Assembly: GCF_045862395.1 (NCBI RefSeq)
Contig: NZ_AP023087.1
Span: 196,744 to 228,743 of the forward strand
Length of the DNA stretch: 32,000 nucleotides
Reading direction: 5' to 3'
DNA from: Marinicellulosiphila megalodicopiae
GTDB lineage: Bacteria; Pseudomonadota; Gammaproteobacteria; Pseudomonadales; Natronospirillaceae
Under the pieces are notes generated by a model. It was given only the letters and a program-made list of their open reading frames with translations, was not told where the DNA came from and ran no database searches. This document shows, piece after piece, positions 11,776 through 30,859 of this stretch. Each line of letters opens with the position of its first letter. Positions within the stretch are counted from its first letter, which is position 1. The position numbers were made by a program, and so were the translations under genes.

Positions 11776-13041
11776 ATGAAATCAATGTACTTTACTTTAT
11801 TTACTATTATTAACCTGTTTGCATCAAGCTGTTCTGATGATGCTAAGCATTCTCCCCCTGCAACCCCCACTACTACGTTAAGTGTCGGGGGGTTCAATAA
11901 CGCTCCAAATTATATAATGGACAACCAAGCGCGTATTGAAAATAGGCTCAACCTCAAACTAAATATTACTGATAATAATTGGAGTGTTCATCACACTGCG
12001 TTAAGTGCTAATTTATACGAGTCGCCTCAATTTCTGAATGACATTGAATTTATAGACGCAGGCATGCTGGCAGGCTATTTACATAATGAAAACTTAATGG
12101 ATTTAACCGATAAATTTGAGCCAATAAAAAATAACTTCCCGGATTTTTCTGTCGCTCATGGAATAAATGATGAATCAAAACAAATCGCTGTTCCATTTGA
12201 ATTAGGCCCTGGTGTTGCAATATATCGAAGAGCGTATATGGAAGACATCAATCAAAATTTAGCCGATGTCATGGCCACTTGGGAAAGTTGGTTAGAATAC
12301 GGAAGAATGTTAAAACAAGATCATAATGTCTATTTAATTGCAAATTCTGCTGGAGTTGCTCGTGCAATTATTTATTCAGATATCAAAGAAAATACAGGTG
12401 TATATTTTGGTGAGAATAATGAAATTTTAGTTGAAACCGATCGATTTAAAACGGCATTTCAAATTGCCAAAATCTTAACTGAAGAAGAGCTAGCAGAAAA
12501 TTTAGGTATGTGGAATTCAAATTGGTATGAAGGGTTTAATAATGCAAGCTTCGCAATGGAGTTTCAAGGAGCATGGTTGTTGCAAAGCTTGGCAGATTGG
12601 ATTGCCGAAGACACTGCTGGACAATGGGGTGTGAGTCATTTACCCAATGGAATTCATATGGCATGGGGCGGTACCTATTTAGCAATTTCAAATAACAGTA
12701 AAGAAAAAGACGCCGCATGGGAATTAGTGAACTACTTAATTGAATCTCAAAATCAACTGGATATTTATCAACAAATATTTACTTTTCCAGCAAACTTGCT
12801 TACTTATAGTGATGCGTATTTTGATCAAAGCAATCCATTTTTAAATCATCAAAAAGACAGAAAAATTTATGCTGAAGTAGCATTGAATATTAAACCTGCA
12901 AAATATCATAGATTAAATAATGTAGCCGAGACACAGGTAATGAATTATGCGCTCACTTCAGTATTAAATGGTAGCGCGACCATTGATGAAGCACTTGCTA
13001 CTGCTGCAAAAAATATTCAACTGAGACTTGATGAAAAGTAA
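11776..13041 (+). CDS. extracellular solute-binding lipoprotein (family 1 SBP-like), orphan
   Basis: N-term FASSC lipobox-like; C-terminal MAWGGTYLAISNNSKEKDAAWELVNYLIESQNQLDIYQQ resembles sugar SBPs. No permease or ATPase adjacent. Confidence 0.65.
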   Translation: MKSMYFTLFTIINLFASSCSDDAKHSPPATPTTTLSVGGFNNAPNYIMDNQARIENRLNLKLNITDNNWSVHHTALSANLYESPQFLNDIEFIDAGMLAGYLHNENLMDLTDKFEPIKNNFPDFSVAHGINDESKQIAVPFELGPGVAIYRRAYMEDINQNLADVMATWESWLEYGRMLKQDHNVYLIANSAGVARAIIYSDIKENTGVYFGENNEILVETDRFKTAFQIAKILTEEELAENLGMWNSNWYEGFNNASFAMEFQGAWLLQSLADWIAEDTAGQWGVSHLPNGIHMAWGGTYLAISNNSKEKDAAWELVNYLIESQNQLDIYQQIFTFPANLLTYSDAYFDQSNPFLNHQKDRKIYAEVALNIKPAKYHRLNNVAETQVMNYALTSVLNGSATIDEALATAAKNIQLRLDEK

Positions 13042-13043
13042 AA

Positions 13044-13082
13044 AAAGATTGAGATGCTAATTTACTTAGCATCTCAATCTTT
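13044..13082. terminator. bidirectional terminator-like hairpin
   Basis: Perfect 17-bp stem AAAGATTGAGATGCTAA-TTTAC-TTAGCATCTCAATCTTT right after the SBP stop codon. Confidence 0.85.
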
Positions 13083-13254
13083 TCTATATTCTAAATCTAT
13101 TTAGTCAATATCATATCAAATCCTCTCAAATTGTAATCAAAAGCGATAAGCAACAACTTTTATTATTTCTAATCTGAGTTTAATTCAATGAATCACTTCG
13201 CCTAATTCAGCAAATCGGTTAAAATCTTAAAATTATTCAATAGAGAAGTAGATT

Positions 13255-13578: not shown

Positions 13579-13745
13579 GTAATTAATATCATTGAGGCAG
13601 GCTCAATTTATAAAAATCTAAAATGTATATTTTAAAATCAGATTGAAAATTGTATGCTAAGTTTTTAGAATGCTTAGGGTTTTGACTTTGATACTTAATT
13701 TTTTATTTGCTTTATTTAAAATATTATATCTGTAACTGTAAAAAA

Positions 13746-13772
13746 TCCTCGATTTTGGTCGAGGACTTTTTT
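13746..13772 (+). terminator. intrinsic terminator
   Basis: TCCTCGA-TTTTGG-TCGAGGA followed by CTTTTTT. Confidence 0.85.
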
Positions 13773-13834
13773 AGTTTTTTGAATTGGGTTGGTTTAAATT
13801 GTTGACAGCCATAAATAATATAGGCTTTACCTGC

Positions 13835-14400
13835 TTAAAATTTATCATTAGTGTCATGTTTGTAAGTATCGGTTATAAAGTCAGGAATCCCATCATCTTT
13901 GATGCCATTCAAGCCAGAAATACTTTTCGAGAATTGGTCATTTTTTAATTTTCAATTAATGATAACGTTTTGCTCTGCAGTCATATCAAATATATCTAAC
14001 GAGCTATACCAACCGCTGGCTGAGCCAAAAGTAAAAAATACACGGCAAGCATTCTCAACTTTATCTATTTCAGATTCAGTTAAATCATCAATGCCATCCT
14101 CGTTAAACTCTTTAATTGCACTTAACTCAAAAACAGTGACATCTAACATTGTTTCACCGTTTAATATAAGTCCATTACTGCCTTCTAATAATTCGACATC
14201 AATTTTTTCTAAATCTTCTAGTCCAAATACAATATAAGCAGTACATGAGGTTAAATGACTTTCATTACCAAAACTGCATCATCTATTTCATTTACCCAGC
14301 CAGTATTCTTCCCATAAAAAATATCATTTAAAGAGCTACTTCGAAATGCAAAACCCTCATTTTCATCATGATGTCTTAACCTCTGCAAAGTAAGCAATTA
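13835..14400 (-). pseudogene. decayed FG-GAP (integrin-alpha-like) repeat protein fragment
   Basis: Three - strand frames together read ...GWVNEIDDAV | GNESHLTSCTAYIVFGLEDLEKIDVELLEGSNGLILNGETMLDVTVFELSAIKEFNEDGIDDL... | FSKSISGLNGIKDDGIPDFITDTY, i.e. FG-GAP style DxNxDGIDD and YVVFG motifs broken by frameshifts/stops. Confidence 0.6.
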
Positions 14401-14439
14401 ATAAACCCATTAATGTGCTAACCAGCGACTTTTCAATCA

Positions 14440-14700
14440 AAGGTGGGAAGTTTTGACTTAAATGTTACGCCAGTAGGCGAAAACACATAAGGTGCCATTT
14501 AAGAATTAAATTCCGAATTTTTACCAAATGGTTGGTTTGTTACTAGGGCATTTGAACGTTGTATAACCTTAAAATCAGAAGGGTTTGAAGGCATTGGAAT
14601 GCCGAGGGATATTTATAGTGAAAATTTTAGCAAAGAGCAATCTTTTGAAATATTACCCAACGCAATGAATTTCGCAATTGAAAACATCAATAAAAAATAG
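14440..14700 (+). pseudogene. C-terminal remnant of an S41 (C-terminal processing) peptidase-like gene
   Basis: In-frame reading DLNVTPVGENT*GAI*ELNSEFLPNGWFVTRAFERCITLKSEGFEGIGMPRDI* resembles the S41 tail VGExTxGA...LPNGW...(D)G..FEGxGIPPDI, with two internal stops and no start codon. Confidence 0.5.
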
Positions 14701-14784
14701 TTTATGGTTGAAATTTCATGCAATTTTACTTCTTTGTTCTATTCTGTAATTAACTGAAATTTTTATTAGTACTTTGGAAAAACT

Positions 14785-15843
14785 ATGTTGCAAGTTGTAA
14801 AGCAATTATCAAATTGGATTGGCGTAGCGCTTATAATGAGTGTTTGCTTACAAATTCATGCTCAAACGCCACCTGCGCCAGTGAACATGGTGATCCATTC
14901 AGGTTTTGTGAATCTGATGAGTGATCCAAAAGCGCTTGTATTTACTGATCTATATGAGGTGCCACCTAGTATCAAGCGTGTGGCTTTATATAACAGCAAC
15001 GATAAACTATCTAAGGAGATCAGTAAGCAGACTCGAACCATGATCGAAGGACAAATTTTATCAGAATTGTTAAATACAAAACGATTTGAAATTACAGCCT
15101 GTGTTGAATGCGATCAAATTAATGTCATATTAAATGAAGAGCAAGTCAAAATTGAAAAAGCCATTGAGAGCAATCAACAATTAAGGAAACTTGCAAAAAT
15201 CATTGCCGTAGATGCATTTTTTGTATGGAGTGCTCAAGTGGTAAACCAGCAATATCGAATCGATATGCGGTTGATTCGCGCCACAGACAATCAAGTATTA
15301 TGGACGCACCAGTATGCAAAAAAAACCACAGAAGAAGACGTGATAAAAGATTTTAAATCCACTCAATGGGAAATGTATTTAAGTAGCATTGGTTTTAAAA
15401 TGGAACGCACCTCCAGTACATTAAGTACTTTAAAATCTGGGCAGATTTCTGTGTTTGGGTTGCGTCGTCGTGAAGCGTCTACTTTTTATCCACATTTAAA
15501 TTATGGGTTAGGTATTGAGGTGTTTGGCAACATTACCAAGCGCGAATCCATGCCATTTTTTGGTGGGTCCATTAATGGCCGACTTAGTTTAGATTTTCCC
15601 GCATTACAAAAGTATATTCCTACCAGTACTTATATTGAAGTAGGGCAGAGTATATACAATCAAAGCCAAGCTTTAATTTTTAAATACGGACTTGAATTTC
15701 CGTTTGCTAAAAATGGAATCATTAATTTAGGTGTCTTATATTCTCCTGAAAATACAATCATTTGGGATGCGTTTGAAGACTATTCAACTGAAACCGTATT
15801 TGGTGGAGCAACTTATGAAATTATGCTGGGGTATCGACTTTGA
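14785..15843 (+). CDS. exported protein with CsgG/FlgO/TolB-N-like domain and putative outer-membrane C-terminal region; first gene of the motor-like operon
   Basis: Signal-like N-term ending IHAQ; LAKIIAVDAFFVWSAQVVNQQYRIDMRLIRATDNQVLWTHQY resembles CsgG/FlgO-type proteins. C-terminal alternating aromatic segments end in ...GGATYEIMLGYRL. Confidence 0.6.
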   Translation: MLQVVKQLSNWIGVALIMSVCLQIHAQTPPAPVNMVIHSGFVNLMSDPKALVFTDLYEVPPSIKRVALYNSNDKLSKEISKQTRTMIEGQILSELLNTKRFEITACVECDQINVILNEEQVKIEKAIESNQQLRKLAKIIAVDAFFVWSAQVVNQQYRIDMRLIRATDNQVLWTHQYAKKTTEEDVIKDFKSTQWEMYLSSIGFKMERTSSTLSTLKSGQISVFGLRRREASTFYPHLNYGLGIEVFGNITKRESMPFFGGSINGRLSLDFPALQKYIPTSTYIEVGQSIYNQSQALIFKYGLEFPFAKNGIINLGVLYSPENTIIWDAFEDYSTETVFGGATYEIMLGYRL

Positions 15844-16652
15844 ATATTCAATATAAAATTTTATCGTGCATTATTTTTCTATTATTTTCATTAACCGGCT
15901 GTACATCGATTAAGCAAAAAAAAGACATGAATGCACAATTAAATGATTTGCCGCAAAGCAGCGCATTACCTGCATTTGATATGCCTGCACCAGTTAAAAA
16001 AACAAAAGATGATTTTGGTGTGCTGGCCATTAAACAAGATGGTCCAGGTTATGAAATTAATTTAGCTCTAGATACAGGTGATGAAAATGTTAGTTTTCAA
16101 ATGGATTTACCGGAGCAATCCTCTGCAAGCAAAAAACTTGCGCAACAGGATAATTCACAGTTACCTAAAACCGCAATAACAAAAATAAAAAATGACGAAC
16201 TTGATGGTTTTATCGATCCGATGACTTCAACTGATTCTGTTGAAAAAACAAAAGTGATGCCTAACAATATTACCTCAACACAGCAAGCAAAAATAGACAG
16301 TGCTTTTACTGGAAACACACCTGAAAACAATGTCAGTAATCCAAACAACAGTAACCTAAACAACAGTAGCCAAAACAATAGTAACCCAAAAAACAATGGG
16401 CCAAGTGCCAATGATTATTTAGTGTCTGCACAAACGCAATTTTATGAAGACAATTATATGGGCGCGTTAACGGATATTGAACAGGCTATTTTACAAGACG
16501 ATACTCAAGCATTGTCCTATGCAATTAAGGGTTCTATTTTATACAAGCTTGGCAACAAAAACGCAGCAAAAATCGCATGGCAAAAAGCGTTAAAGTTGAA
16601 TCCAAAATTATCATCAGTTGAATTAAGTCTGCAATATTTAGTAGGGCAATAA
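15840..16652 (+). CDS. TPR-containing lipoprotein with Asn-rich linker
   Basis: Lipobox FSLTGC; linker NTPENNVSNPNNSNLNNSSQNNSNPKNNG; C-terminal NYMGALTDIEQAILQDDTQALSYAIKGSILYKLGNKNAAKIAWQKALKLNP is TPR. Overlaps the previous gene by 4 nt. Confidence 0.8.
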   Translation: MNIQYKILSCIIFLLFSLTGCTSIKQKKDMNAQLNDLPQSSALPAFDMPAPVKKTKDDFGVLAIKQDGPGYEINLALDTGDENVSFQMDLPEQSSASKKLAQQDNSQLPKTAITKIKNDELDGFIDPMTSTDSVEKTKVMPNNITSTQQAKIDSAFTGNTPENNVSNPNNSNLNNSSQNNSNPKNNGPSANDYLVSAQTQFYEDNYMGALTDIEQAILQDDTQALSYAIKGSILYKLGNKNAAKIAWQKALKLNPKLSSVELSLQYLVGQ

Positions 16653-16653
16653 G

Positions 16654-18585
16654 ATGAAACGGATACCGTTATTAGTAATTGGCGCACTGGGTTTATTTTG
16701 TGTAAACCTCAAAGCAAATGAAATACAGCAATTAGATATTGTTGATCAACTTGAGCACCGTGTTGCAAGAGATGTGGCTGCCTATTTAGGGCACAATCGT
16801 TTTATCGTAAATATTGATGTCGCATTGTCAGCGATTACCTTGCAAAACAATCAAGTAAATTCTTCTCAAAATAATCAAGCAGAAATGGATGCCTATGAAA
16901 ACTTCAGTGAAACCATTTCATCACTTGAAGAAGTTATTCGTGTTTTGGAAAGTCAACAGCCTAAAATCAGTGAAATATCATTACCGGGATTACCCTTTGC
17001 TGCCCCAGAAAAAATTGACATTCCGGAATCGGAAGCACTGACCCTTTTAAATAAAACTATAACGGATTATCAAAACAAAAAACCCATAGCAACCTCAACA
17101 CCCAATAATGTTGCACCCACACTTACAGTATCAGAACAAACAAAAATTGATAATATTTTAGTAACCCTAGTAATTGATGAAACCATCGATGCAGAGCAAT
17201 TAAATTTTGTTAAATTTTTGATTGAAGACAAGTTAAATATCAATCCATTTCGTGGTGATAAAATCAGTGTCTTTCCAACTAAATTTAATTTAGAAACTTT
17301 TGAGCCAACGTTAAATTTAGATGAGCCCCTTGATTTAGACTCACCGATTAATTCTCAATTGAACGAAGATAAAAATACAGCAATGGAGCAGCCAGCATTA
17401 TTTGCATGGAATCAACCATTAACTTGGATATTGCTTGTACTTGTGGTTATGTTTTTAATGATGTTACTACTTTTAATTAGACGCAACCAAGGTGCTACTA
17501 ATTTGCAGTCAAATGCTCAGGCAGACACTGGATCAGTGACAGCATATAGCGACACCCATAAAAAACCTGACAATGTTTATGCTTATTCAGAAAAAATTAA
17601 AAACCTGAAGCAAGATATTATTAGCTCGGGATTGAGTCATCCTGAGCGTACAAGTTTAAGAGTGGATGAATTATTGTTTGAGCCTAATAATCAAGCCATG
17701 CTTGCCTGTGCGTATTTTGTGTTAGGTGGATCATTATTCAGAGGGTTATTTCCAAGCGTATCTCAAGCACAGCTTGTGACAATTTCACAATATCTAGACG
17801 AACAACAATTAGAGGATGAATCCATCGTACAAGAATTAAGTGCGCTGCATTTAATTTTATCTAAGCACAATGACACTAAAAGCACGACTACCACATTAGC
17901 GCCATTTCAATTTTTAAAACGCCTAAATAACAATCAAATTATTTATTTATTGCAAGAAGAAGAGCCAAGAATTAAAGCATTAGTACTTAGTCAGTTACCC
18001 GCGAATCGCGCCGCTGACATCATTCATAAACTCACCCCAGACCAGCAGGGGCAAGTTGCCTTTGAAATAGGTCAGTTTAGTGAATTTCCTATTTCTACCT
18101 TTAAAGATATTGCCCAACGTTTAGCCAAAAAATCATTAAATGTCCCAAGTTTTGAAAATCTCAATACCGATGGAACAAGTTTGATGATTGATTTATTAGA
18201 CAACATGAAAAATGAAAATGAACATCAATTTTTACAACAACTTAAAAATCAATCGCCTGAAATGTATTATCGTATTCGACAAATTTATTTTACTTTTGAA
18301 GACATTAAACGCACGCCTACTACTACATTAAAAGATGCTTTTGTAGATTTAGATCGCAAACAATTAGCGTTTGCATTAATGGGTGTGGATGAAACGTTAC
18401 TGCAACATTGTTTAGATTCCATGCCAAACAAATTAAAACAAGCCGTTAAAGATGAAATTGAATTCAGTGATGTAAAACCAAGTACCGATATGATTGAATC
18501 TGCTCGCAAACATATTGTTAAACATATTCGTGCATTAATTGAACTTGGTAAAATCAATATGCAAGACTTAGCCACGCTAGAATAA
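16654..18585 (+). CDS. natural fusion of a reduced FliF (RBM3-like + C-terminal TM) and FliG (middle + C-terminal torque domain)
   Basis: aa 32-58 QLEHRVARDVAAYLGHNRFIVNIDVAL ~ FliF YEQRIE..L.PIVG..NV.A.V...LDF; aa 163-211 KIDNILVTLVIDETIDAEQLNFVKFLIEDKLNINPFRGDKISVFPTKF ~ FliF RBM3 end; TM at aa ~253-275; aa ~437-495 and 505-643 match FliG middle and C domains (LDRKQLAFALMGVDETLLQHCLDSMPNKLKQAVKDEIEF). Confidence 0.85.
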   Translation: MKRIPLLVIGALGLFCVNLKANEIQQLDIVDQLEHRVARDVAAYLGHNRFIVNIDVALSAITLQNNQVNSSQNNQAEMDAYENFSETISSLEEVIRVLESQQPKISEISLPGLPFAAPEKIDIPESEALTLLNKTITDYQNKKPIATSTPNNVAPTLTVSEQTKIDNILVTLVIDETIDAEQLNFVKFLIEDKLNINPFRGDKISVFPTKFNLETFEPTLNLDEPLDLDSPINSQLNEDKNTAMEQPALFAWNQPLTWILLVLVVMFLMMLLLLIRRNQGATNLQSNAQADTGSVTAYSDTHKKPDNVYAYSEKIKNLKQDIISSGLSHPERTSLRVDELLFEPNNQAMLACAYFVLGGSLFRGLFPSVSQAQLVTISQYLDEQQLEDESIVQELSALHLILSKHNDTKSTTTTLAPFQFLKRLNNNQIIYLLQEEEPRIKALVLSQLPANRAADIIHKLTPDQQGQVAFEIGQFSEFPISTFKDIAQRLAKKSLNVPSFENLNTDGTSLMIDLLDNMKNENEHQFLQQLKNQSPEMYYRIRQIYFTFEDIKRTPTTTLKDAFVDLDRKQLAFALMGVDETLLQHCLDSMPNKLKQAVKDEIEFSDVKPSTDMIESARKHIVKHIRALIELGKINMQDLATLE

Positions 18586-18599
18586 TAAAGAGAAAAAAC

Positions 18600-19412
18600 A
18601 TGCCTTTTATAAGTACAGTTATTGGATTTGTTGGTGCTTCGTTATTATTTATATTTGCTATTACATCAAGTACCGATTCCTACTCAATGTTCTTAAGTCC
18701 ATCCAGTTTTTTATTAGTACTTGGGGGGACATTGGCAGCAAGTATTATTTCATTTAATTTATTTGATGTATTAAAAGCATTAGGGGCAATATTTAAAACA
18801 CTTTCAAATGACAAGGACACCAATCAAGTATTAAATAAAGATGTTAAAAAAATAATTGATTGGAGCAAAGTGTATCGAAAAAAAGGGTTGGGTAGTTGGA
18901 TTGACTCATTATCAAGCAAAGATCAAAAAGATAAATTTTTAAATTATTGTTTTGAAATGGTGCAAACTGGATATGAGCAAGAGGAATTACGTTATTTAAT
19001 TTCAGCAAGAATAGAGGCTGATTTTACGCGCAAAGCCCAGCCTGCAAAAATATTACAAACCATGGCAAGTTACGCTCCAGGCTTTGGTATGGTTGGCACT
19101 ATTATCGGCTTAATTATTATGCTTGATACGATGGGTGGCGATATTTCTGCATTAGGTAAAGGCTTGGCCTTAGCGTTAATTACCACGCTATATGGTGTAC
19201 TTTTAGGACAGCTAGTATTTAAACCCTGTGCTACCCATTTATTTAATAAAGTAGAAGGAGAATATTTTAGGCATCAAATTATTTTGGAAGGTATTATTTG
19301 TATTTTACAAAAACGCGATTCTATTGCGATTCAAGATCATATTAACGCTCTGTTGCGCCCTAAAGCCTATTATCAATTAAGCAATGAAAAAGAAGGAAAG
19401 TCCGATAAATAA
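18600..19412 (+). CDS. MotA-like stator subunit (MotA/TolQ/ExbB proton channel family)
   Basis: 270 aa; SFLLVLGGTLAASIISF, TMASYAPGFGMVGTIIGLIIMLDTMGGD, GKGLALALITTLYGVLLGQLVFKPCA: MotA signature segments. Confidence 0.92.
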   Translation: MPFISTVIGFVGASLLFIFAITSSTDSYSMFLSPSSFLLVLGGTLAASIISFNLFDVLKALGAIFKTLSNDKDTNQVLNKDVKKIIDWSKVYRKKGLGSWIDSLSSKDQKDKFLNYCFEMVQTGYEQEELRYLISARIEADFTRKAQPAKILQTMASYAPGFGMVGTIIGLIIMLDTMGGDISALGKGLALALITTLYGVLLGQLVFKPCATHLFNKVEGEYFRHQIILEGIICILQKRDSIAIQDHINALLRPKAYYQLSNEKEGKSDK

Positions 19413-20076
19413 ATCAAAACCAACAGCAATGCGCAGACGACCTCGCGCAGCAGACAATGGCGATGATTGGTTATTAACTTATGCCGATGTGATTACACTG
19501 CTGCTTGCTTTTTTTGTAATGTTGTTAACCATCACCGATGTAAACGAAGGAAAAATGGAAGCGTTAAAAGAAGCGCTCTCTGAAAATATTACCAAGGGAG
19601 AAGTCAATACACCGTTAAAAGATATTGAAACCATGGTAGAAAATGCATTTGCTCTTAAAGGTGCGTCTGAATTTACAGAAGTAGAAATCAATCAGGATGG
19701 AATCAGCATAGAGTTAAATAATGTTTTAATGTATCCATCTGGTCAAGCGACTTTATCGGGTAATGCTTTAGATATTATTGAATCTTTAGGTCGTTCAATA
19801 CAGCCTTATATAAAAGATCATTATGAAATTTGGATTGAAGGACACACAGATGATATCCCTATTCATACTGAAAAGTTTGATTCAAACTGGGAATTAAGCT
19901 CAATAAGAGCGATTAATATTGTGCAAGCATTATTAGCCCAAGGTATTGATGCGAATCAATTAGTTGCGGTAGGGTTTGCAGATTCGCGACCTAAGAAAAC
20001 GGACTTGGTTTTAACGCAGCAGGAACAACGTAATATGAATCGCCGAGTGGTGATTCATATTAAGCGGGTTTATTAA
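19384..20076 (+). CDS. MotB-like stator subunit with OmpA/MotB peptidoglycan-binding domain
   Basis: RRPRAADNGDDWLLTYADVITLLLAFFVMLL carries the TM Asp; C-terminal IEGHTDDIPI...NWELSSIRAINIVQALLAQGI...GFADSRP...NRRVVIHI is the OmpA-like domain. Overlaps the MotA-like gene by 29 nt. Confidence 0.93.
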   Translation: MKKKESPINKSKPTAMRRRPRAADNGDDWLLTYADVITLLLAFFVMLLTITDVNEGKMEALKEALSENITKGEVNTPLKDIETMVENAFALKGASEFTEVEINQDGISIELNNVLMYPSGQATLSGNALDIIESLGRSIQPYIKDHYEIWIEGHTDDIPIHTEKFDSNWELSSIRAINIVQALLAQGIDANQLVAVGFADSRPKKTDLVLTQQEQRNMNRRVVIHIKRVY

Positions 20077-20079
20077 TAT

Positions 20080-22947
20080 TTATTGAGTGATTTTATTTAA
20101 TTCAATGACACCTGCATTAAGTTTTAATTGATATTGCACTGAAATATTATTTTCATCACTTGAAACGCTTACAGTATATTCACCATCTTGTTTGAACTGA
20201 TGCATCATAGTTAAAGTTGCGTCTGTATGATATCCATCACCAAAATCCCAATGTAAGGTTTTCACTTGCGAACTTGTGCACTGCTGATTTGAAATAATGT
20301 TTGCCATTGCTGAAAACTGAATTGTATTTGGATTTAATTCATCGTAAGAACTTTGTAATGAAATCGAATTAAATTGTGCATTGCAATTTTGGGTTAGTTG
20401 TTCGTCAGAAATGACTATGCTGGTTAAATTTTCCCAATCACCATACTGAGAATAAGTAATGTTATACGTACCCGGTTGGCTGTAGATATGTGTAAGTGAG
20501 CCAGTATTATAATATTGGTCAATACTTTCATCACCAAATGAAATCGTCAAATTGTCCGTTTGACTTGAGCATATTGATTCTCTTACAAATACATTTAAAT
20601 TCACTTGATTATTAATTTGTGAAATGAATTCTGCTTCAACTGGATTTATTGCCTGGCAATTAGAGACTGTAAATAATTCAGGCAATATCGAAACAACAAA
20701 TTCATCATTTAATTTGATGTCATAGTATTTTGAAGCATTGGCAAATTGATGAGTTAAATAATCTGTATTAAATTCGAATGCAGCACTGCCATTATCTAAA
20801 TCCAAAATTGGTCGAGTGCTGTATGCATAATTACAAATTTCAGAATTTTTAGCAGTTAAATCAAAAATAAATGTGTTATATGTATTTGTATCCACCCTAT
20901 AATTTAATTCCCAGTCACATTGTACAAAATCATCTGATAATGGTTCATTTAATTCAAAATTAGTTTGTCTAATTAATTCTAATGTAGATTCATTATCACT
21001 AATGATAATTTTATATTTTGATTCTAAATCCCCTGTTGCTGTATTTGCAGTAACAATATAATTGCCATTACGCAAATAGGTATGTGAAATACTTCCACCA
21101 GTTTTTGCTAGATATCCATCACCCATGTCCCAATATACTGTGTTTAGCGAACTCAAGGTGCAGCCATCTTCATTTAACTTCATTATTTCAGCATTTAAAT
21201 TAACGCTGTTGTTACCTTTTATAGATTGCATTAATGTGACGTTAATGAATTCAGAAAAATCCGCACATGAAAATTCAAGATCACTTTGATCAATCGTCAC
21301 GGTATAAATATCATCTGAATTACTGTTATCGCCAGTTGAATTGTAATTATTTAATGACTGTCCATCAAATTTAATTTGATAAACGCCAGCTTCTGAAAAT
21401 ACATGTTCGATTAATCCTTGTGAATAATAAGAAGGTGCACCATCTCCAAAATCTATTTCAACTAGACTACCATTATTGCTTTTACAGCCAATGTAGATGT
21501 CATCGTTATAATTTAGTGTTAATTTATTTTTATTTAATGAAATCACTTCAATTAAACTAGAAGTATATAGGCATCCAGTATCTGTCGATATGGATGTATT
21601 TCCTAGAGTTGTATACACAATTTCATTATTCAATTTTATGTCGTAATTTAAATCTGGATTTTCATAGATATATTTGACGTAATCCGTTTCTACAGAAAAA
21701 GGTTCACTTGAATCACCCATGTCAATGATAGGGCGAATAATATTTTGCATATCACAAGTGTCTGGATTTGTAACATCAACTGCTAAAATCATAATATTAT
21801 AGGAGTCATTTGCTAAAGAAACATCAAAATGACATGCATCAAAATTACCTGAATCAATTTGATGTTGCCCAATTAGTTTTGATTTAAATTCATCCTGTTC
21901 AAAAGTAATTTCATATATTTTCTCGATATTATTTTCGGGGGTTCTAAGCGTAACAATATACGTTTTATTTTGTTTAAATTCATGAATGATCGAACCATCA
22001 AAATTTGAATCTACATATGTTTTAGTGTTTCTTCCATCTCCAAAATTCCATTCAAAATATTTTACATCTGATTGTGTGCATTTGTCTGCTGAAAGCATTG
22101 TTCCTTTTGGAATAAAATTAATTTGTTTATTATTATTTTCATCAACTACAAATGTCAATTGAGTAATTGGTATTTCCCCATCACACTGATTAATTAAATC
22201 GTCTGCAGAAATATTAACTAACAACTCTTCATTATCTTGATATTGCTCGTATCCAGGTGGAACGAAATTATTAAAATTAGCCAACGATAAGCTATTAAAT
22301 GTAATGTCGTTATATTCGCCGATATCGGAAAAAATATGTTTTATTTTTCCTTGGTTGTAAACTTCGGGCTGGCTACCATCATTAAAATCGATTAAGACTT
22401 GGGCTGAATTATGCTCGCAACTATAATATCCTTCATAGCCATAATTTAAAATTAATACATTATCTATAATAGACTCAATGCTGATTTTCTCTGGAGAACT
22501 AATTGAGCAAGAAGTAATTGAACCTGCATCTCCATATATAGTCAGCGCTAATTCGTTATTTAATTTAATGTCGTATTCCATAAAGGATTTTTCATATTCA
22601 TAAGTAACATAATCGCCTTCCACAACAAATGGGGCGCTTCCATCGCCCATGTCTATAGTTGGTTTTTGCAGATTAGTTTGATCGCATGTAGCTTCATTTA
22701 ATAATGACACTGACAAAATAACAGAATTGTAATCGTAAATTTTCTTTACGGTCCAAATGCACTGATCTGGATCTATCACGACTAATTCAGTTTCGATGGA
22801 ATCACTTGATTCAGTTTCTGTATTTGTTTCAATACCAGATTCCGTATTAGTATCCAATTCTGAGTCGGTGGAATTATTCGCTTCAACCAAGTTATCTAAA
22901 CAAGACGAAAGTAATAGCGTAACAAAAAATAGGTTTAAAGTTTTCAT
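20080..22947 (-). CDS. large lipoprotein with tandem PKD-like domains in three ~300-aa supermodules
   Basis: Lipobox LLLSSC; repeated PTIDMGDGSAPF / IDFNDG / FEWNFGDG...HEF...YIVTL; VYWDMGDG...SHTYLRNGNYIVT; LHWDFGDG...MHQFKQDGEYTVSV. Confidence 0.85.
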   Translation of the reverse strand: MKTLNLFFVTLLLSSCLDNLVEANNSTDSELDTNTESGIETNTETESSDSIETELVVIDPDQCIWTVKKIYDYNSVILSVSLLNEATCDQTNLQKPTIDMGDGSAPFVVEGDYVTYEYEKSFMEYDIKLNNELALTIYGDAGSITSCSISSPEKISIESIIDNVLILNYGYEGYYSCEHNSAQVLIDFNDGSQPEVYNQGKIKHIFSDIGEYNDITFNSLSLANFNNFVPPGYEQYQDNEELLVNISADDLINQCDGEIPITQLTFVVDENNNKQINFIPKGTMLSADKCTQSDVKYFEWNFGDGRNTKTYVDSNFDGSIIHEFKQNKTYIVTLRTPENNIEKIYEITFEQDEFKSKLIGQHQIDSGNFDACHFDVSLANDSYNIMILAVDVTNPDTCDMQNIIRPIIDMGDSSEPFSVETDYVKYIYENPDLNYDIKLNNEIVYTTLGNTSISTDTGCLYTSSLIEVISLNKNKLTLNYNDDIYIGCKSNNGSLVEIDFGDGAPSYYSQGLIEHVFSEAGVYQIKFDGQSLNNYNSTGDNSNSDDIYTVTIDQSDLEFSCADFSEFINVTLMQSIKGNNSVNLNAEIMKLNEDGCTLSSLNTVYWDMGDGYLAKTGGSISHTYLRNGNYIVTANTATGDLESKYKIIISDNESTLELIRQTNFELNEPLSDDFVQCDWELNYRVDTNTYNTFIFDLTAKNSEICNYAYSTRPILDLDNGSAAFEFNTDYLTHQFANASKYYDIKLNDEFVVSILPELFTVSNCQAINPVEAEFISQINNQVNLNVFVRESICSSQTDNLTISFGDESIDQYYNTGSLTHIYSQPGTYNITYSQYGDWENLTSIVISDEQLTQNCNAQFNSISLQSSYDELNPNTIQFSAMANIISNQQCTSSQVKTLHWDFGDGYHTDATLTMMHQFKQDGEYTVSVSSDENNISVQYQLKLNAGVIELNKITQ

Positions 22948-26317: not shown

Positions 26318-27403
26318 TTAATGTATGTATAACGATGTGATCAAGCGTTCAACCCAAAATGCACTAAATTGCTGATTTGATAGTTTACTGAGTTCAACCA
26401 ATGCACGTTTTACAGGTCTCTGATAATCGGACTTATAATAATGTCCATGTGTAATCGCTTCATAAGCATGAATAATAGACAGACACATAGCGCCAGGGTG
26501 AATATCGTTTTCAGTCAGACCTTTAGGGTAACCTAGACCGTTGACCCATTCGTGATGCTCATGCAAAATTCTTGAGGCTTGCTGCCAATGCTCGCTTTGG
26601 GATAATAAAAAACTACAGGCATAAACATGTGCTTTGATTTGTTTTTTTTCATTTTGGGTCATGGGCTGTTCGCGAGATAGCAATTTGATAGGCAAAAACG
26701 ACATCGCAATATCATGTGTATAAATAGCCGCTGCTATTTGTTCAAAATCAAAATCGTATTGGCTGCCGTCTAGCATTCTATGCGCAAGATTGAGTAATCG
26801 ATTGGTTCGTCCTTTCCATTGAGGCATTCTATTTTCGACGCTAGGAATTAAATTGGCAAAATAAGTTAAATCAGGATATTGCTCAGGAAACTGATTGTGA
26901 AGCATCGATTCTTCTATTTCTATTAATGAAGGTTGGTTGTGATTCAACAGAGCAAGGGCTTTGAGAATTTGTAACTCAGGGTCGCTATGGGTTGATATTT
27001 TATTGATTTGTATTCCAACATCTTCATAAAGTTTTGCGTCATAAAACACAGTCTCCGACTCAAGTGAGTCATTTAAAAATGTTTTAACATGATCAAGTAA
27101 TAATAACGAAAGATCGCCAATTTTAGGATTAAATTCAAGCTCACCTTGTCGAACCAAACTTAAAACGTCTTCTAATTCTTGTAATACAGGAATTAACGGC
27201 GGTAATTGTGCAATACTTAAATTGCCTTTAACTGTGTGGATATTTCTAAATAGTGCGCTGAGCTTTTCAGTCTCTTTAGGTTGATGCTCCAATTCAATAA
27301 TTAAATTTTCAGCATCTGCTAAATTTTCATGAAATTCTTCATGCAGGTTTTGCAGTAACTCTTGATTTAACTGTTCAGTTCTAAATTCTAACATTGTATG
27401 CAT
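26318..27403 (-). CDS. Hpt-domain protein fused to a degenerate HD-GYP-like domain
   Basis: N-terminal LFRNIHTVKGNLSI (Hpt phospho-His motif); C-terminal AAAIYTHDIAM...HEHHEWVNGLGYPKGLTENDI resembles HD-GYP with altered signature. Confidence 0.75.
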   Translation of the reverse strand: MHTMLEFRTEQLNQELLQNLHEEFHENLADAENLIIELEHQPKETEKLSALFRNIHTVKGNLSIAQLPPLIPVLQELEDVLSLVRQGELEFNPKIGDLSLLLLDHVKTFLNDSLESETVFYDAKLYEDVGIQINKISTHSDPELQILKALALLNHNQPSLIEIEESMLHNQFPEQYPDLTYFANLIPSVENRMPQWKGRTNRLLNLAHRMLDGSQYDFDFEQIAAAIYTHDIAMSFLPIKLLSREQPMTQNEKKQIKAHVYACSFLLSQSEHWQQASRILHEHHEWVNGLGYPKGLTENDIHPGAMCLSIIHAYEAITHGHYYKSDYQRPVKRALVELSKLSNQQFSAFWVERLITSLYIH

Positions 27404-29079: not shown

Positions 29080-30003
29080 ATGACTTCAAATCAAAGTGTC
29101 CGCATTCCCAAAAAAAGACGTGGCTTGGGCGATGTTTTAGAAACATGGTTACCGAAAATAGTCATGTCACCGTCGCTAGTCTTAACTGTAGTTTTTATTT
29201 ATGGTTTTATTATTTGGACGTCGGTTTTATCTTTTACAAAATCAAGAATGTTACCTCAATATGAGTTTGTTGGTTTTGATCAATATGTAAAATTATTTCA
29301 AAATGATCGCTGGATGGATGCCTTACAAAATTTGGCAGTATTTGGCATATTATTTATTGCAATTTGTTTAGTTTTAGGATTGTTTCTTGCAATTCTATTG
29401 GATCAAAAAATCCGTGGTGAAGGGTTTATTCGAACAATTTATTTATACCCAATGGCGTTATCTTTTATTGTGACAGGCACTGTATGGAAATGGATACTAA
29501 ATCCTTCTGTTGGGCTTGAGAATTTCTTTCAATCGATAGGATTTGAAAATTTTGAATTTGATTGGTTAGTTAATCCTGATAAAGCCATTTACACTGTTGT
29601 GATTGCAGGAGTGTGGCAGTCATCAGGTTTTGTGATGGCATTATTTTTAGCTGGGCTTCGAAGTGTAGATGAATCCATTATTAAAGCCGCTCAAATAGAT
29701 GGCGCAAGTTTAAGCACTATTTATATCCGTATTATTATTCCTTCGTTGGGTCCTGTGTTTTTCTCTGCTGTGATTATGCTTGCGCATATTGCAATTAAAT
29801 CCTTTGATTTAGTTATGGCATTGACTGGAGGAGGGCCTGGAAATTCAACAGATGTTCCTGCTATTTTTATGTATCAATTTTCTTTTACTCGTTCGCGTAT
29901 TGGAATGGGAGCGGCCAGTGCTGTTGTAATGTTAATGGGTATTATCAGTATTTTAGTCCCATTTTTATATTCTCAATTAAGGAGTAAAAAAGATGAATAC
30001 TAA
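29080..30003 (+). CDS. sugar ABC transporter permease (CUT1)
   Basis: SLSTIYIRIIIPSLGPVFFSAVIMLAHIAIKSFDLVMALTGGGPG: inner-membrane EAA loop and GGGPG of CUT1 permeases. Confidence 0.93.
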   Translation: MTSNQSVRIPKKRRGLGDVLETWLPKIVMSPSLVLTVVFIYGFIIWTSVLSFTKSRMLPQYEFVGFDQYVKLFQNDRWMDALQNLAVFGILFIAICLVLGLFLAILLDQKIRGEGFIRTIYLYPMALSFIVTGTVWKWILNPSVGLENFFQSIGFENFEFDWLVNPDKAIYTVVIAGVWQSSGFVMALFLAGLRSVDESIIKAAQIDGASLSTIYIRIIIPSLGPVFFSAVIMLAHIAIKSFDLVMALTGGGPGNSTDVPAIFMYQFSFTRSRIGMGAASAVVMLMGIISILVPFLYSQLRSKKDEY

Positions 30004-30859
30004 ATATAAAAAAATCACAAAACGATCATTACTGTATGCATTAATTATTGTAATAGCCGCTTATTATTTATTGCCATTGATCTTAATGGTGGTGACATCA
30101 TTTCGATCGATGGAAGAAATAAGAATAGGACAGTTAATTCAATGGCCGAAATCGTTTAATTTTGATGCGTGGTCTCAAGCGTGGAATGAAGCGCAAATTG
30201 GAGCAAGAGAAGACAAAGGGCTAAAACCATATTTTATTAACTCACTTTTAATTGTGATTCCAGCGGTGGTGATCACAACCGTACTTGGTGCAATTAACGG
30301 ATATGTATTAAGTTTTTGGAAATTTAAAGGCAGTGAAATAGTGTTTGCTTTGATTTTATTTGGTTGTTTTATTCCCTTCCAAGCTATTTTATTACCTATG
30401 TCTCAATCGTTAGGTCGCATGGGAATTTCAGGATCCATCTATGGTTTGATTTTTGTGCATGTCATTTATGGACTGCCGTTTACAACATTATTTTTTAGAA
30501 ATTATTATATTTCAATTCCTGTTGAATTAATCAAGGCAGCAAAATTAGATGGAGCAGGGTTTTTAAGGATTTTCTTTAGAATTATTTTTCCATTAAGTAC
30601 GCCAATCATTGTGGTCAGTGTGATTTGGCAATTTACCCAAATCTGGAATGATTTCTTATTTGGCGTTACTTTTAGTGATCCAGATTCTCAACCTGTAACT
30701 GTCGGTTTAAATAATCTAGTAAACAGTTCAACAGGTGAAAAACGTTACAATGTAGATATGGCAGGTGCCATTATTGCTGCATTGCCTACCATCATTGTTT
30801 ATGTGCTTGCAGGTAAATATTTTGTACGCGGTTTAAGTGCCGGTTCAGTAAAGGGATAA
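29993..30859 (+). CDS. carbohydrate ABC transporter permease (CUT1)
   Basis: ELIKAAKLDGAGFLRIFFRIIFPLSTPIIVV is the EAA motif; overlaps the previous ORF by 11 nt. Confidence 0.93.
   Translation: MNTKYKKITKRSLLYALIIVIAAYYLLPLILMVVTSFRSMEEIRIGQLIQWPKSFNFDAWSQAWNEAQIGAREDKGLKPYFINSLLIVIPAVVITTVLGAINGYVLSFWKFKGSEIVFALILFGCFIPFQAILLPMSQSLGRMGISGSIYGLIFVHVIYGLPFTTLFFRNYYISIPVELIKAAKLDGAGFLRIFFRIIFPLSTPIIVVSVIWQFTQIWNDFLFGVTFSDPDSQPVTVGLNNLVNSSTGEKRYNVDMAGAIIAALPTIIVYVLAGKYFVRGLSAGSVKG

Follow-up and report, generated by a model that had tools for sequence, protein, structure and literature searches.

Can the torque-generating core of the bacterial flagellar motor exist, and be selected, apart from a flagellum? 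The question is raised by a locus of Marinicellulosiphila megalodicopiae (Pseudomonadales, Natronospirillaceae), in which five genes at positions 14785-20076 of a 32,000-nucleotide (nt) window (the whole stretch of DNA that was analysed: NCBI RefSeq assembly GCF_045862395.1, contig NZ_AP023087.1, positions 196,744 to 228,743 of the forward strand) encode proteins of the flagellar rotor and stator type, together with two putative outer-membrane partners. Plug-bearing MotAB stators of the flagellar class are thought to serve flagellar rotation only, and a 2025 paper on MotAB evolution links flagellar-type stators to the flagellum and is silent on a module of this kind (PMC12505986). A preliminary description, made from the letters of the DNA, had proposed an undescribed envelope-spanning motor composed of a CsgG/FlgO-like protein, a tetratricopeptide repeat (TPR) lipoprotein, a FliF-FliG fusion, MotA and MotB. 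The five proteins (p1 to p5 in gene order) were compared with profile, structure and literature collections, and their relatives were collected from species genomes and metagenomes. The description that suits the module best is a new and much reduced version of the rotor-stator core of flagella, joined by outer-membrane partners.

Rotor, stator and outer-membrane proteins of the operon

All five genes lie on the forward strand, and an open reading frame (ORF) check bore out the positions, overlaps and gaps claimed for them: p1 (14785-15843, +) encodes 352 amino acids (aa), p2 (15840-16652, +, TTG start) 270 aa, p3 (16654-18585, +) 643 aa, p4 (18600-19412, +) 270 aa, and p5 (19384-20076, +) 230 aa. 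The TTG start of p2 overlaps the TGA stop of p1 (cTTTGA, a 4-nt overlap), the gaps between p2 and p3 and between p3 and p4 measure 1 nt and 14 nt, and p4 overlaps p5 by 29 nt. This last value hinges on the start chosen for p5, as an internal ATG (Met16, nt 19429) would turn the overlap into a 16-nt gap, and in the nearest ortholog of the operon the same junction is a gap of 8 nt. No flagellar genes besides the five were found by Pfam among the ORFs ≥ 100 aa of the window (except for the unscanned interval 29993-30859), in agreement with the initial report that FliM/FliN, rod, hook, filament, FlhA/B and FliI are missing on both sides; genes for a type III export gate or ATPase, rod, hook, filament or L/P ring occur neither in the operon nor in the window.

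The rotor-like component is p3, a type I membrane protein made up of a signal peptide, an RBM3/collar-like domain, one transmembrane (TM) helix, a linker and the middle and C domains of FliG. It is 100% identical to the NCBI entry 'FliG C-terminal domain-containing protein [Marinicellulosiphila megalodicopiae]', and there is no NCBIfam model for it, nor for p1. The FliG part (17932-18558, +; middle domain at residues 427-497, C domain with the torque helix at 529-635) was recognized by Pfam (FliG_M 2.7e-14, FliG_C 7.5e-23), by comparison with PDB sequences (FliG 3hjl at 7.8e-21) and by hhalign, in which the p3 profile aligned with E. coli FliG 119-321 at a probability of 92%, while Foldseek aligned the cytoplasmic part with full-length FliG across 316-349 columns. 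In the torque helix, K593 corresponds to E. coli FliG R281 and D600/E601 to D288/D289. FliG_N was not detectable in p3 by sequence, and the FliM-binding EHPQR motif is degenerate (EEPR, with R160 replaced by E) and variable across the family, which fits the absence of FliM/FliN.

The N-terminus of p3 is a cleavable-type signal peptide (16654-16716, +; residues 1-21, read from the sequence as MKR...NLKA, with NE following the cleavage site) that recurs in the orthologs, where AxA-type cleavage sites are seen. The periplasmic FliF-like RBM3/collar domain that follows (16783-17286, +; residues 44-211) has the order alpha-beta-(insert)-beta-alpha-beta. Its insert carries an LPGLP motif (110-114) with an invariant P111, and its last unit an RGD motif (200-202), also present in FliF, with an invariant D202; in a set of 40 highly divergent p3 relatives (alignment A4, mean identity 23%) these two motifs are nearly the only invariant periplasmic features, and the LPGLP loop may serve in contacts with p1/p2 or in ring packing. 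The p3 profile matched E. coli FliF 373-472, that is, the last beta-alpha-beta of RBM3 plus TM2, with an hhalign probability of 89% (E 2e-6), and Foldseek paired the periplasmic domain with the FliF RBM3/collar chains 7bk0_B, 6sd1_A and 6sd3_Q (probability 1.0, E about 1e-2). PF08345 (YscJ_FliF_C) was detected in 16 of 22 members of the p3 family, at best with 9.8e-12. The single TM helix (17419-17478, +; residues 256-275, located by hhalign and a hydrophobicity scan) is aligned to TM2 of FliF, has RR on its cytoplasmic side, and spans residues 255-288 as a helix in the AlphaFold2 (AF2) model (predicted local distance difference test score, pLDDT, 66; this and the other AF2 models are of monomers). 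A signal peptide stands in place of RBM1, RBM2 and TM1 of FliF, of which only RBM3/collar and TM2 are detectable. The FliF-FliG fusion proposed for 16654-18585 was upheld in full for the FliG middle and C domains, and for FliF as far as RBM3/collar and TM2 are concerned; p3 lacks the parts that a sole FliF/FliG would need, and the host is flagellated, two points that bear indirectly on whether the host has separate fliF/fliG/motAB copies.

The stator calls for p4 and p5 were confirmed by Pfam, NCBIfam and PDB matches alike. With four TM helices and a MotA_ExbB domain (1.4e-22), p4 is of the MotA/PomA type; its best PDB match is MotA of C. sporogenes (2.9e-30), PomA reaches 1.7e-23, and R93, P160 and P209 correspond to E. 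coli R90, P173 and P222. The MotB-type p5 consists of a TM helix, a plug and an OmpA-like peptidoglycan-binding domain (Pfam MotB_plug 1.6e-15, OmpA 1e-12), matches MotB of B. subtilis (1.3e-21) as well as PomB and MotS in the PDB, and contains the channel residue Asp35 (E. coli D32) and SNWELS and NRR motifs. In NCBIfam, p4 scored 156 bits with MotP (155.8; cut-off 394), 143 with MotA and 130 with PomA, all under the equivalog cut-offs, and p5 reached 170.2 bits with MotD (6e-50; cut-off 283). As p4 and p5 fall below every NCBIfam equivalog cut-off (MotA, PomA, MotP, MotB, MotD, MotS), they represent a separate lineage inside the flagellar-type stator class (the 'FIT' class of PMC12505986).

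Two other homes for a MotAB-like pair were considered. Membership in Tol-Pal or ExbBD-TonB was rejected: p4 gave 2.2e-4 with ExbB and 5e-3 with TolQ in NCBIfam, compared with 1e-45 for flagellar stator models, and the operon contains no TonB/TolA-like gene. A Zorya-type anti-phage system, or another defence system built on a MotAB-like channel, would be in line with the PADLOC matches of ZorB models to p5 (3.6e-20) and, weakly, of ZorA models to p4 (3.6e-4), and with the location of some copies of the module in mobile-element-like regions. These matches, however, are confined to the MotA/MotB core that all such proteins share; p4, at 270 aa, has no ZorA tail (the profiles comprise 545-590 positions) and, like p5, scores far higher with flagellar stator models, no ZorC/ZorD-like genes, nuclease or other PADLOC match occur in the operon, and the plasmid search described below found no match. 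PADLOC having returned generic core matches only, Zorya was rejected, and a defence function on this basis is highly improbable.

Functional residues of rotor and stator were surveyed in up to 28 dereplicated groups of related loci (E. coli numbering). The channel residue MotB Asp32 and both MotA Pro173 and MotA Pro222 are each kept in 28/28 groups. In E. coli, MotA R90 pairs with FliG D288/D289 and MotA E98 with FliG R281 (PMC12505986). Across the family, FliG Arg281 is present as Arg or Lys in 26/28 groups and its partner MotA Glu98 as Glu or Asp in 22/27, while MotA Arg90 is Arg or Lys in 18/27; acidic residues at FliG 288/289 are found in 15/18 of the groups with Arg or Lys at MotA-90, versus 0/8 of those with Gln.

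The remaining two proteins point to the outer membrane. In p1, annotated by NCBI as a 'hypothetical protein' (100% identical), a signal peptide is followed by a periplasmic alpha/beta N-domain with an invariant CxxC (C106/C109) and by a C-terminal 8-stranded beta-barrel ending in an outer-membrane protein beta-signal (family consensus LTLGxRF; both motifs from alignment A2). In the AF2 model (pLDDT 59 overall, 60-86 in the barrel) the barrel was matched by Foldseek to the TM domain of OmpA (5.6e-6) and, more weakly, to Ail, NspA and OmpX, and no PDB sequence matched the p1 profile. Based on the model, p1 is firmly predicted to be an OmpA/OmpX-type 8-stranded outer-membrane barrel protein, so that the exported, possibly outer-membrane protein initially suggested was correctly recognized. 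The label 'CsgG/FlgO-like' did not survive in its first half, as no CsgG match was obtained in Pfam or NCBIfam and the structural matches are 8-stranded barrels of the OmpA/OmpX/Ail type, and it stands in its second half as a sub-threshold resemblance at most: p1 scored 16.4 bits with Pfam FlgO (PF17680; gathering cut-off 22.6), and 13/16 p1 orthologs matched FlgO below threshold (best 6.9e-4) and 4/16 FlgT_M. The N-domain may be called weakly FlgO/FlgT_M-like, in the sense of resemblance and not of family membership. For p2, a lipobox (LTGC, Cys21, Thr at +2; present in most orthologs) and Pfam TPR matches (TPR_1 1e-5, TPR_2 1.4e-5, residues 225-256) support its designation as a TPR lipoprotein, in which a long N/S/Q-rich linker leads to a C-terminal TPR domain (about residues 190-265). 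The PilW-like and PrsT-like TPR matches in NCBIfam were all sub-threshold, and only designed or generic TPR proteins were matched in the PDB.

Spread and co-inheritance of the five genes

The proposal that a conserved five-gene order be sought in other genomes proved productive, with the five-gene set recurring in 27 of 32 groups and in several orders. A pattern-limited scan for the close clade, with one genome per species in 185,579 species genomes, yielded 25 loci in Oleispira, Bermanella, Thalassolituus, Oceaniserpentilla, Gynuella, Saccharospirillaceae and Moritella; the clade is sporadic among the species genomes, and all of its loci keep the order p1-p2-p3-p4-p5 wherever the contig permits, at 25-50% identity. 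When 1.84 billion representatives (clusters at 50% identity) were searched with the p3 profile, at least 186 clusters of relatives were found at E ≤ 1e-30, which divide into two superclusters at 30% identity. Among the best 150 of the 186 relatives, 147 proteins were surveyed, of which 121 have just one TM helix, centrally placed, and 66/147 an N-terminal hydrophobic segment as well. Distant members encode the same five proteins as p3-p1-p2-MotA-MotB, MotA-MotB-p1-p2-p3 or p1-p2-p3-MotA-MotB. A metagenome scan for the second clade, performed with the clade-specific alignment A5, as A4 was too divergent, added 48 loci, nearly all of them p3-p1-p2-p4-p5.

Altogether, 87 loci were dereplicated into the 32 groups (70% p3 identity), and the incomplete groups are accounted for by short contigs, one p3-p1-p2-only subgroup and one locus without p1. 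No sixth recurrent gene family was found beside the module in the 87 loci (apparent ones were antisense shadow ORFs or local synteny), and FliM/FliN was not encountered as a recurrent neighbour in them. The flanks are unrelated from locus to locus, and the GC content of the loci ranges from 34 to 70%. The distance matrices of the five proteins correlate pairwise with r = 0.81-0.92, and the ratio of non-synonymous to synonymous substitution rates (dN/dS) of the operon genes against their closest relative is 0.06-0.18, with dS near saturation. Since the genes are co-conserved in 27/32 groups and show such dN/dS values, they are real genes and not chance ORFs. The five genes form a conserved, selected, self-contained module rather than a chance neighbourhood, and one that is much more widespread and better conserved than is visible from the window alone.

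These data also bear on the idea that the operon is the decaying remnant of a second flagellar locus, devoid of present function, which could be read into the fact that only a subset of flagellar-type genes is present and that the adjacent 1.2 kb contains broken ORFs only. On the other hand, the five ORFs are intact and under the constraint given by the dN/dS values above, and the set has been kept across at least 27 divergent groups in two deep clades, with invariant catalytic residues. Conservation effectively refutes this explanation, for which we see next to no probability.

Among the 72,556 plasmids searched with tblastn, ordinary fliG genes were found, and no member of the p3 family. In two related metagenomic loci (L034 1002-16905 and L088 1-21884), the module is situated amid TraG/DUF87-type conjugation genes and many small unknown genes and, in L034, has a phage-type integrase nearby. 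Behind the module comes a pair of unknown genes (about 1045 aa and 395 aa) that is conserved between the two loci. The setting points to an integrative element as carrier, possibly with additional cargo. Mobile-element-like contexts of this sort fit the module as an autonomous unit.

Individual loci provided further observations. In L089 (4864-8930), the MotB protein is 372 aa long and carries a C-terminal TPR extension, a fusion which suggests that the TPR protein works beside the periplasmic domain of the stator; the next genes encode a sub-threshold PorV/PorQ-like outer-membrane barrel, a DUF11-repeat protein and a choice-of-anchor-like protein, possibly a surface-protein output set in that one locus. 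In L039 (12805-16573 of a 2.17-Mb contig), MotB overlaps by 8 nt with the start of a MoxR AAA+/DUF58/DUF4381/VWA set (Bat-like), which suggests that the module and this set are co-transcribed. In L032 (3191-16819, a Gammaproteobacteria metagenome-assembled genome), the module has the order MotA-MotB-p1-p2-p3 and lies between a Sel1/SPOR protein and a Wza-Wzc-Wzy-type polysaccharide export cluster. In L033 (5322-10939), where the module is immediately preceded by an IS1595-family transposase, two separate ORFs of 131 and 137 aa take the place of an intact MotA; either the copy may have been inactivated, or the assembly is at fault. As for the hosts, the RpoC gene adjoining the module in a locus of 64% GC indicates a Pseudomonadota-like diderm and nothing finer. 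A claim of non-flagellated Bacteroidota hosts was dropped because neither neighbour hint held under NCBIfam: a neighbour labelled PorP_SprF was PorV/PorQ-like below threshold only, and a CarboxypepD_reg TonB receptor was not SusC.

A proposed machine and its alternatives

On balance, we lean towards reading the five genes as an autonomous, self-contained machine without a switch, derived from the flagellar motor core, in which a FliG-ring/MotAB motor is tied to the outer membrane. In such a machine, p3 would be exported by means of its signal peptide and held by its single TM helix, its RBM3/collar domain would assemble a ring in the inner membrane, and a matching ring of FliG middle and C domains, torque helices included, would thereby be placed on the cytoplasmic face. 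RBM3/collar forms the S-ring of the flagellum, and engineered FliF-FliG fusions reportedly form rings and, in Salmonella, are functional (PMC11481574). The p4/p5 pair would make MotA5MotB2-type stator units, with p5 binding peptidoglycan and carrying the channel aspartate; ion flow would turn p4 around p5, and the cytoplasmic loop of p4 would push the torque helix of p3 through the same charge pairs as in MotA-FliG. The device is expected to be switchless because FliM/FliN are absent and the FliM-binding motif is degenerate. The barrel of p1 and the linker-hung TPR of p2 would contact the assembly and tie it to the outer membrane, either as a scaffold of stator and ring, like the flagellar H/T-ring and Pfl proteins, or else as the driven output. 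Since the module includes neither an export gate nor a rod, hook or filament, this output would not be swimming. The machine would run independently of the flagellum.

What is shared with the flagellar motor core is the FliF RBM3/collar plus TM2 and the FliG middle and C domains with the torque helix in p3, MotA Pro173/Pro222 and, in most groups, charged residues at the R90/E98 positions of the loop, and the plug, Asp32 and OmpA-like domain of MotB. The module differs in having FliF and FliG parts in one polypeptide, from which RBM1, RBM2 and TM1 are absent and in which FliG_N is undetected, and in an operon and window without FliM/FliN, export gate, ATPase, rod, hook, filament and L/P ring. 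The covalent linkage recalls the engineered FliF-FliG fusions of Salmonella and Vibrio alginolyticus (PMC11481574, PMC10941966, PMC6079021); those, however, join full-length FliF and FliG within a complete flagellum, whereas p3 occurs in nature, is truncated, and has a stator and two outer-membrane proteins as its sole companions. Single-pass proteins with a periplasmic domain of the RBM type are also known from the injectisome (SctJ/SctD) and from sporulation (SpoIIIAG/AH), and PF08345 is common to YscJ and FliF, but the best structural matches of p3 are specifically FliF RBM3/collar, and neither of these systems has FliG or is paired with MotAB. To our knowledge, FliG and the ring-building domain of FliF have so far been met only in flagella. 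In the full-text literature (most subscription journals lying outside the coverage), no description of the gene set was found, only canonical motors, engineered fusions and general stator phylogenies; the initial remark that no such system had been described thus agrees with the search, and the module is likely undescribed.

An alternative that keeps the five proteins within known biology is that they are an accessory of the host's ordinary flagellum, with p4/p5 as an alternative stator, p1/p2 as an H/T-ring- or Pfl-like scaffold, and p3 as an extra ring or an assembly or positioning factor at or beside the motor. As an outer-membrane/lipoprotein pair that comes with a stator, p1/p2 resemble the FlgO/FlgP/FlgT H-ring and MotX/MotY T-ring of Vibrio, PflA/PflB of Campylobacter and the TPR proteins of the spirochaete collar, an analogy which suggests a stator- or ring-scaffolding role and which, for MotX and the Pfl proteins, is one of general background, the PDB matches of p2 being generic TPR only. 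Unlike in the H/T-ring and Pfl systems, the FlgO/FlgT similarity of p1 is sub-threshold, p1 has an integral 8-stranded barrel, and there is no rod or LP ring to surround. The accessory explanation gains from this weak FlgO/FlgT_M similarity, from the TPR scaffolds known around flagellar stators (PMC12222027, PMC8609358), from one locus in which fliR-flhB lies directly upstream of the module, and from the fact that every host that can be named belongs to a flagellated genus, M. megalodicopiae itself being 'motile with monopolar flagella', with flagellation that reportedly differs between cells grown on cellulose and on cellobiose (PMC11966569). Against it, flagellar genes adjoin the module in only 1/32 groups and nowhere in the 32-kb window, no sigma28/sigma54 consensus was found upstream of p1 in the window or in 14 orthologs, and copies occur in mobile-element-like regions. 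Moreover, the module is sporadic (25 of the 185,579 species genomes for the close clade, in the pattern-limited scan), while flagella are general in the same groups, and the ring-building domain and torque helix of p3 would compete with FliF/FliG instead of complementing them. We regard an accessory role as unlikely.

Another alternative is an energy transducer or sensor that does not rotate, in which ion flow through the MotAB-like unit would pull or remodel p3, in the manner of ExbBD-TonB or TolQR-TolA, and so pass force or a signal to p2/p1, or inform signalling proteins of ion-motive force or load. Other 5:2 motors do drive non-rotary outputs across the periplasm (PMC12505986, PMC9389320), and the conservation of two outer-membrane partners would suit such a function, as would the neighbours seen at single loci (a GGDEF response regulator, a 7TMR-DISM histidine kinase, the MoxR/VWA set). 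In combining an A5B2-type unit with periplasmic and outer-membrane partners, the module resembles TolQR-TolA-Pal, ExbBD-TonB, GldLM/PorLM (gliding with the type IX secretion system), AglRQS-Glt and ZorAB, and by analogy with these non-flagellar motors it likely delivers energy outward. It differs from them in its flagellar-class stator, which has a plug and is anchored to peptidoglycan, and in a partner that is FliG instead of TolA, TonB, GldM or a ZorA tail; ExbB, TolQ and ZorA models reach only 2e-4 to 5e-3 on p4. The signalling neighbours do not recur, p4/p5 are flagellar-type with a plug and match ExbB and TolQ weakly (2e-4, 5e-3), and both elements of p3, a FliG whose stator-facing helix is conserved and a ring-building motif of FliF, are known only from a rotating ring. 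A non-rotating transducer is accordingly rated as quite improbable.

Several points weigh against the autonomous rotary machine that we favour. In the window itself, PF08345 stays under its cut-off in p3 (2.3e-4, 22.1 bits versus 23.8), the model is poor in the insert of the RBM3-like domain, and the confidence of the AF2 models is medium to low (66 for p3, 59 for p1). Ring formation by p3 and its rotation would follow by homology, from RBM3 and the engineered FliF-FliG fusions, and a ring that is tightly fixed to proteins of the outer membrane would not be free to spin. The position of MotA E98 is occupied in p4 by Ile101, with Asp102 adjacent, and the eight groups with Gln at MotA-90 belong to one clade, so that the co-variation with FliG 288/289 amounts to approximately one event. 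Loci L079-L085 (low GC; e.g., L083 7980-11769) retain p3-p1-p2, and no MotA/MotB was found within 6-8 kb downstream, where a MarR regulator and a TonB-dependent receptor are located; L039 has no adjacent p1. Lastly, the nameable hosts are without exception flagellated genera, as already noted, so that the module may depend on the flagellum.

A bolder claim, which we put forward as tentative, is that the module is the first FliG-based ion-driven rotary machine without type III export or an axial structure. It would be free-standing and would have spread, vertically as well as horizontally, through many uncultured bacteria, and the FliF/FliG ring that it turns would power a process at the outer membrane, for instance surface movement, adhesion or upkeep of the envelope. 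A conserved and selected module that retains just the torque-generating pair, with the rotor proteins fused and all else discarded, and that brings in two outer-membrane proteins would constitute a new class of envelope machine, as well as a natural minimal system of five proteins for studying rotor-stator coupling free of switch and export complexity. It would also make testable the functioning of a flagellar rotor-stator core independently of a secretion apparatus, as needed by models of flagellar origin. If the claim is true and the lineage is old, not a recent reduction, this would show that the flagellar torque core is able to persist under selection on its own, with a direct bearing on how a secretion system acquired rotation. 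Several of the marine hosts can be cultivated (Marinicellulosiphila, Bermanella, Thalassolituus, Moritella), which makes genetics and cryo-electron tomography feasible.

Surroundings of the operon in the window

The operon is flanked in the window by genes for PhoX, malate dehydrogenase, MntP, solute-binding proteins, a PKD-repeat protein and ABC transporters. Upstream, between a 107-aa ORF and p1, lies a 1.2-kb stretch without an intact gene (13579-14784), which presumably holds the operon promoter. It contains short broken ORFs on both strands (e.g., the minus-strand fragments 14251-14397, 13952-14149 and 13835-13912) for which no Pfam matches were obtained, and it may be a decayed gene. The Rfam scan of the whole window gave no RNA family match, so the long gap is not explained by a riboswitch or small RNA. 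Further upstream, directly after a solute-binding-protein gene (11776-13041), a near-perfect inverted repeat of 18-20 bp with T-runs on both sides (13041-13085) looks like a bidirectional intrinsic terminator.

Downstream, the stop codon of a convergent gene (20080-22947, -) is located 3 nt past that of MotB (p5). Its product is a 955-aa lipoprotein-like protein with PKD domains and about four internal repeat modules; it is not found beside the module in other genomes and is probably unrelated to it. Another gene on the minus strand (26318-27403, -) combines an Hpt phosphotransfer domain and an HD_5 (HD-GYP-type) domain in one protein, possibly a cyclic-di-GMP phosphodiesterase wired to a phosphorelay.

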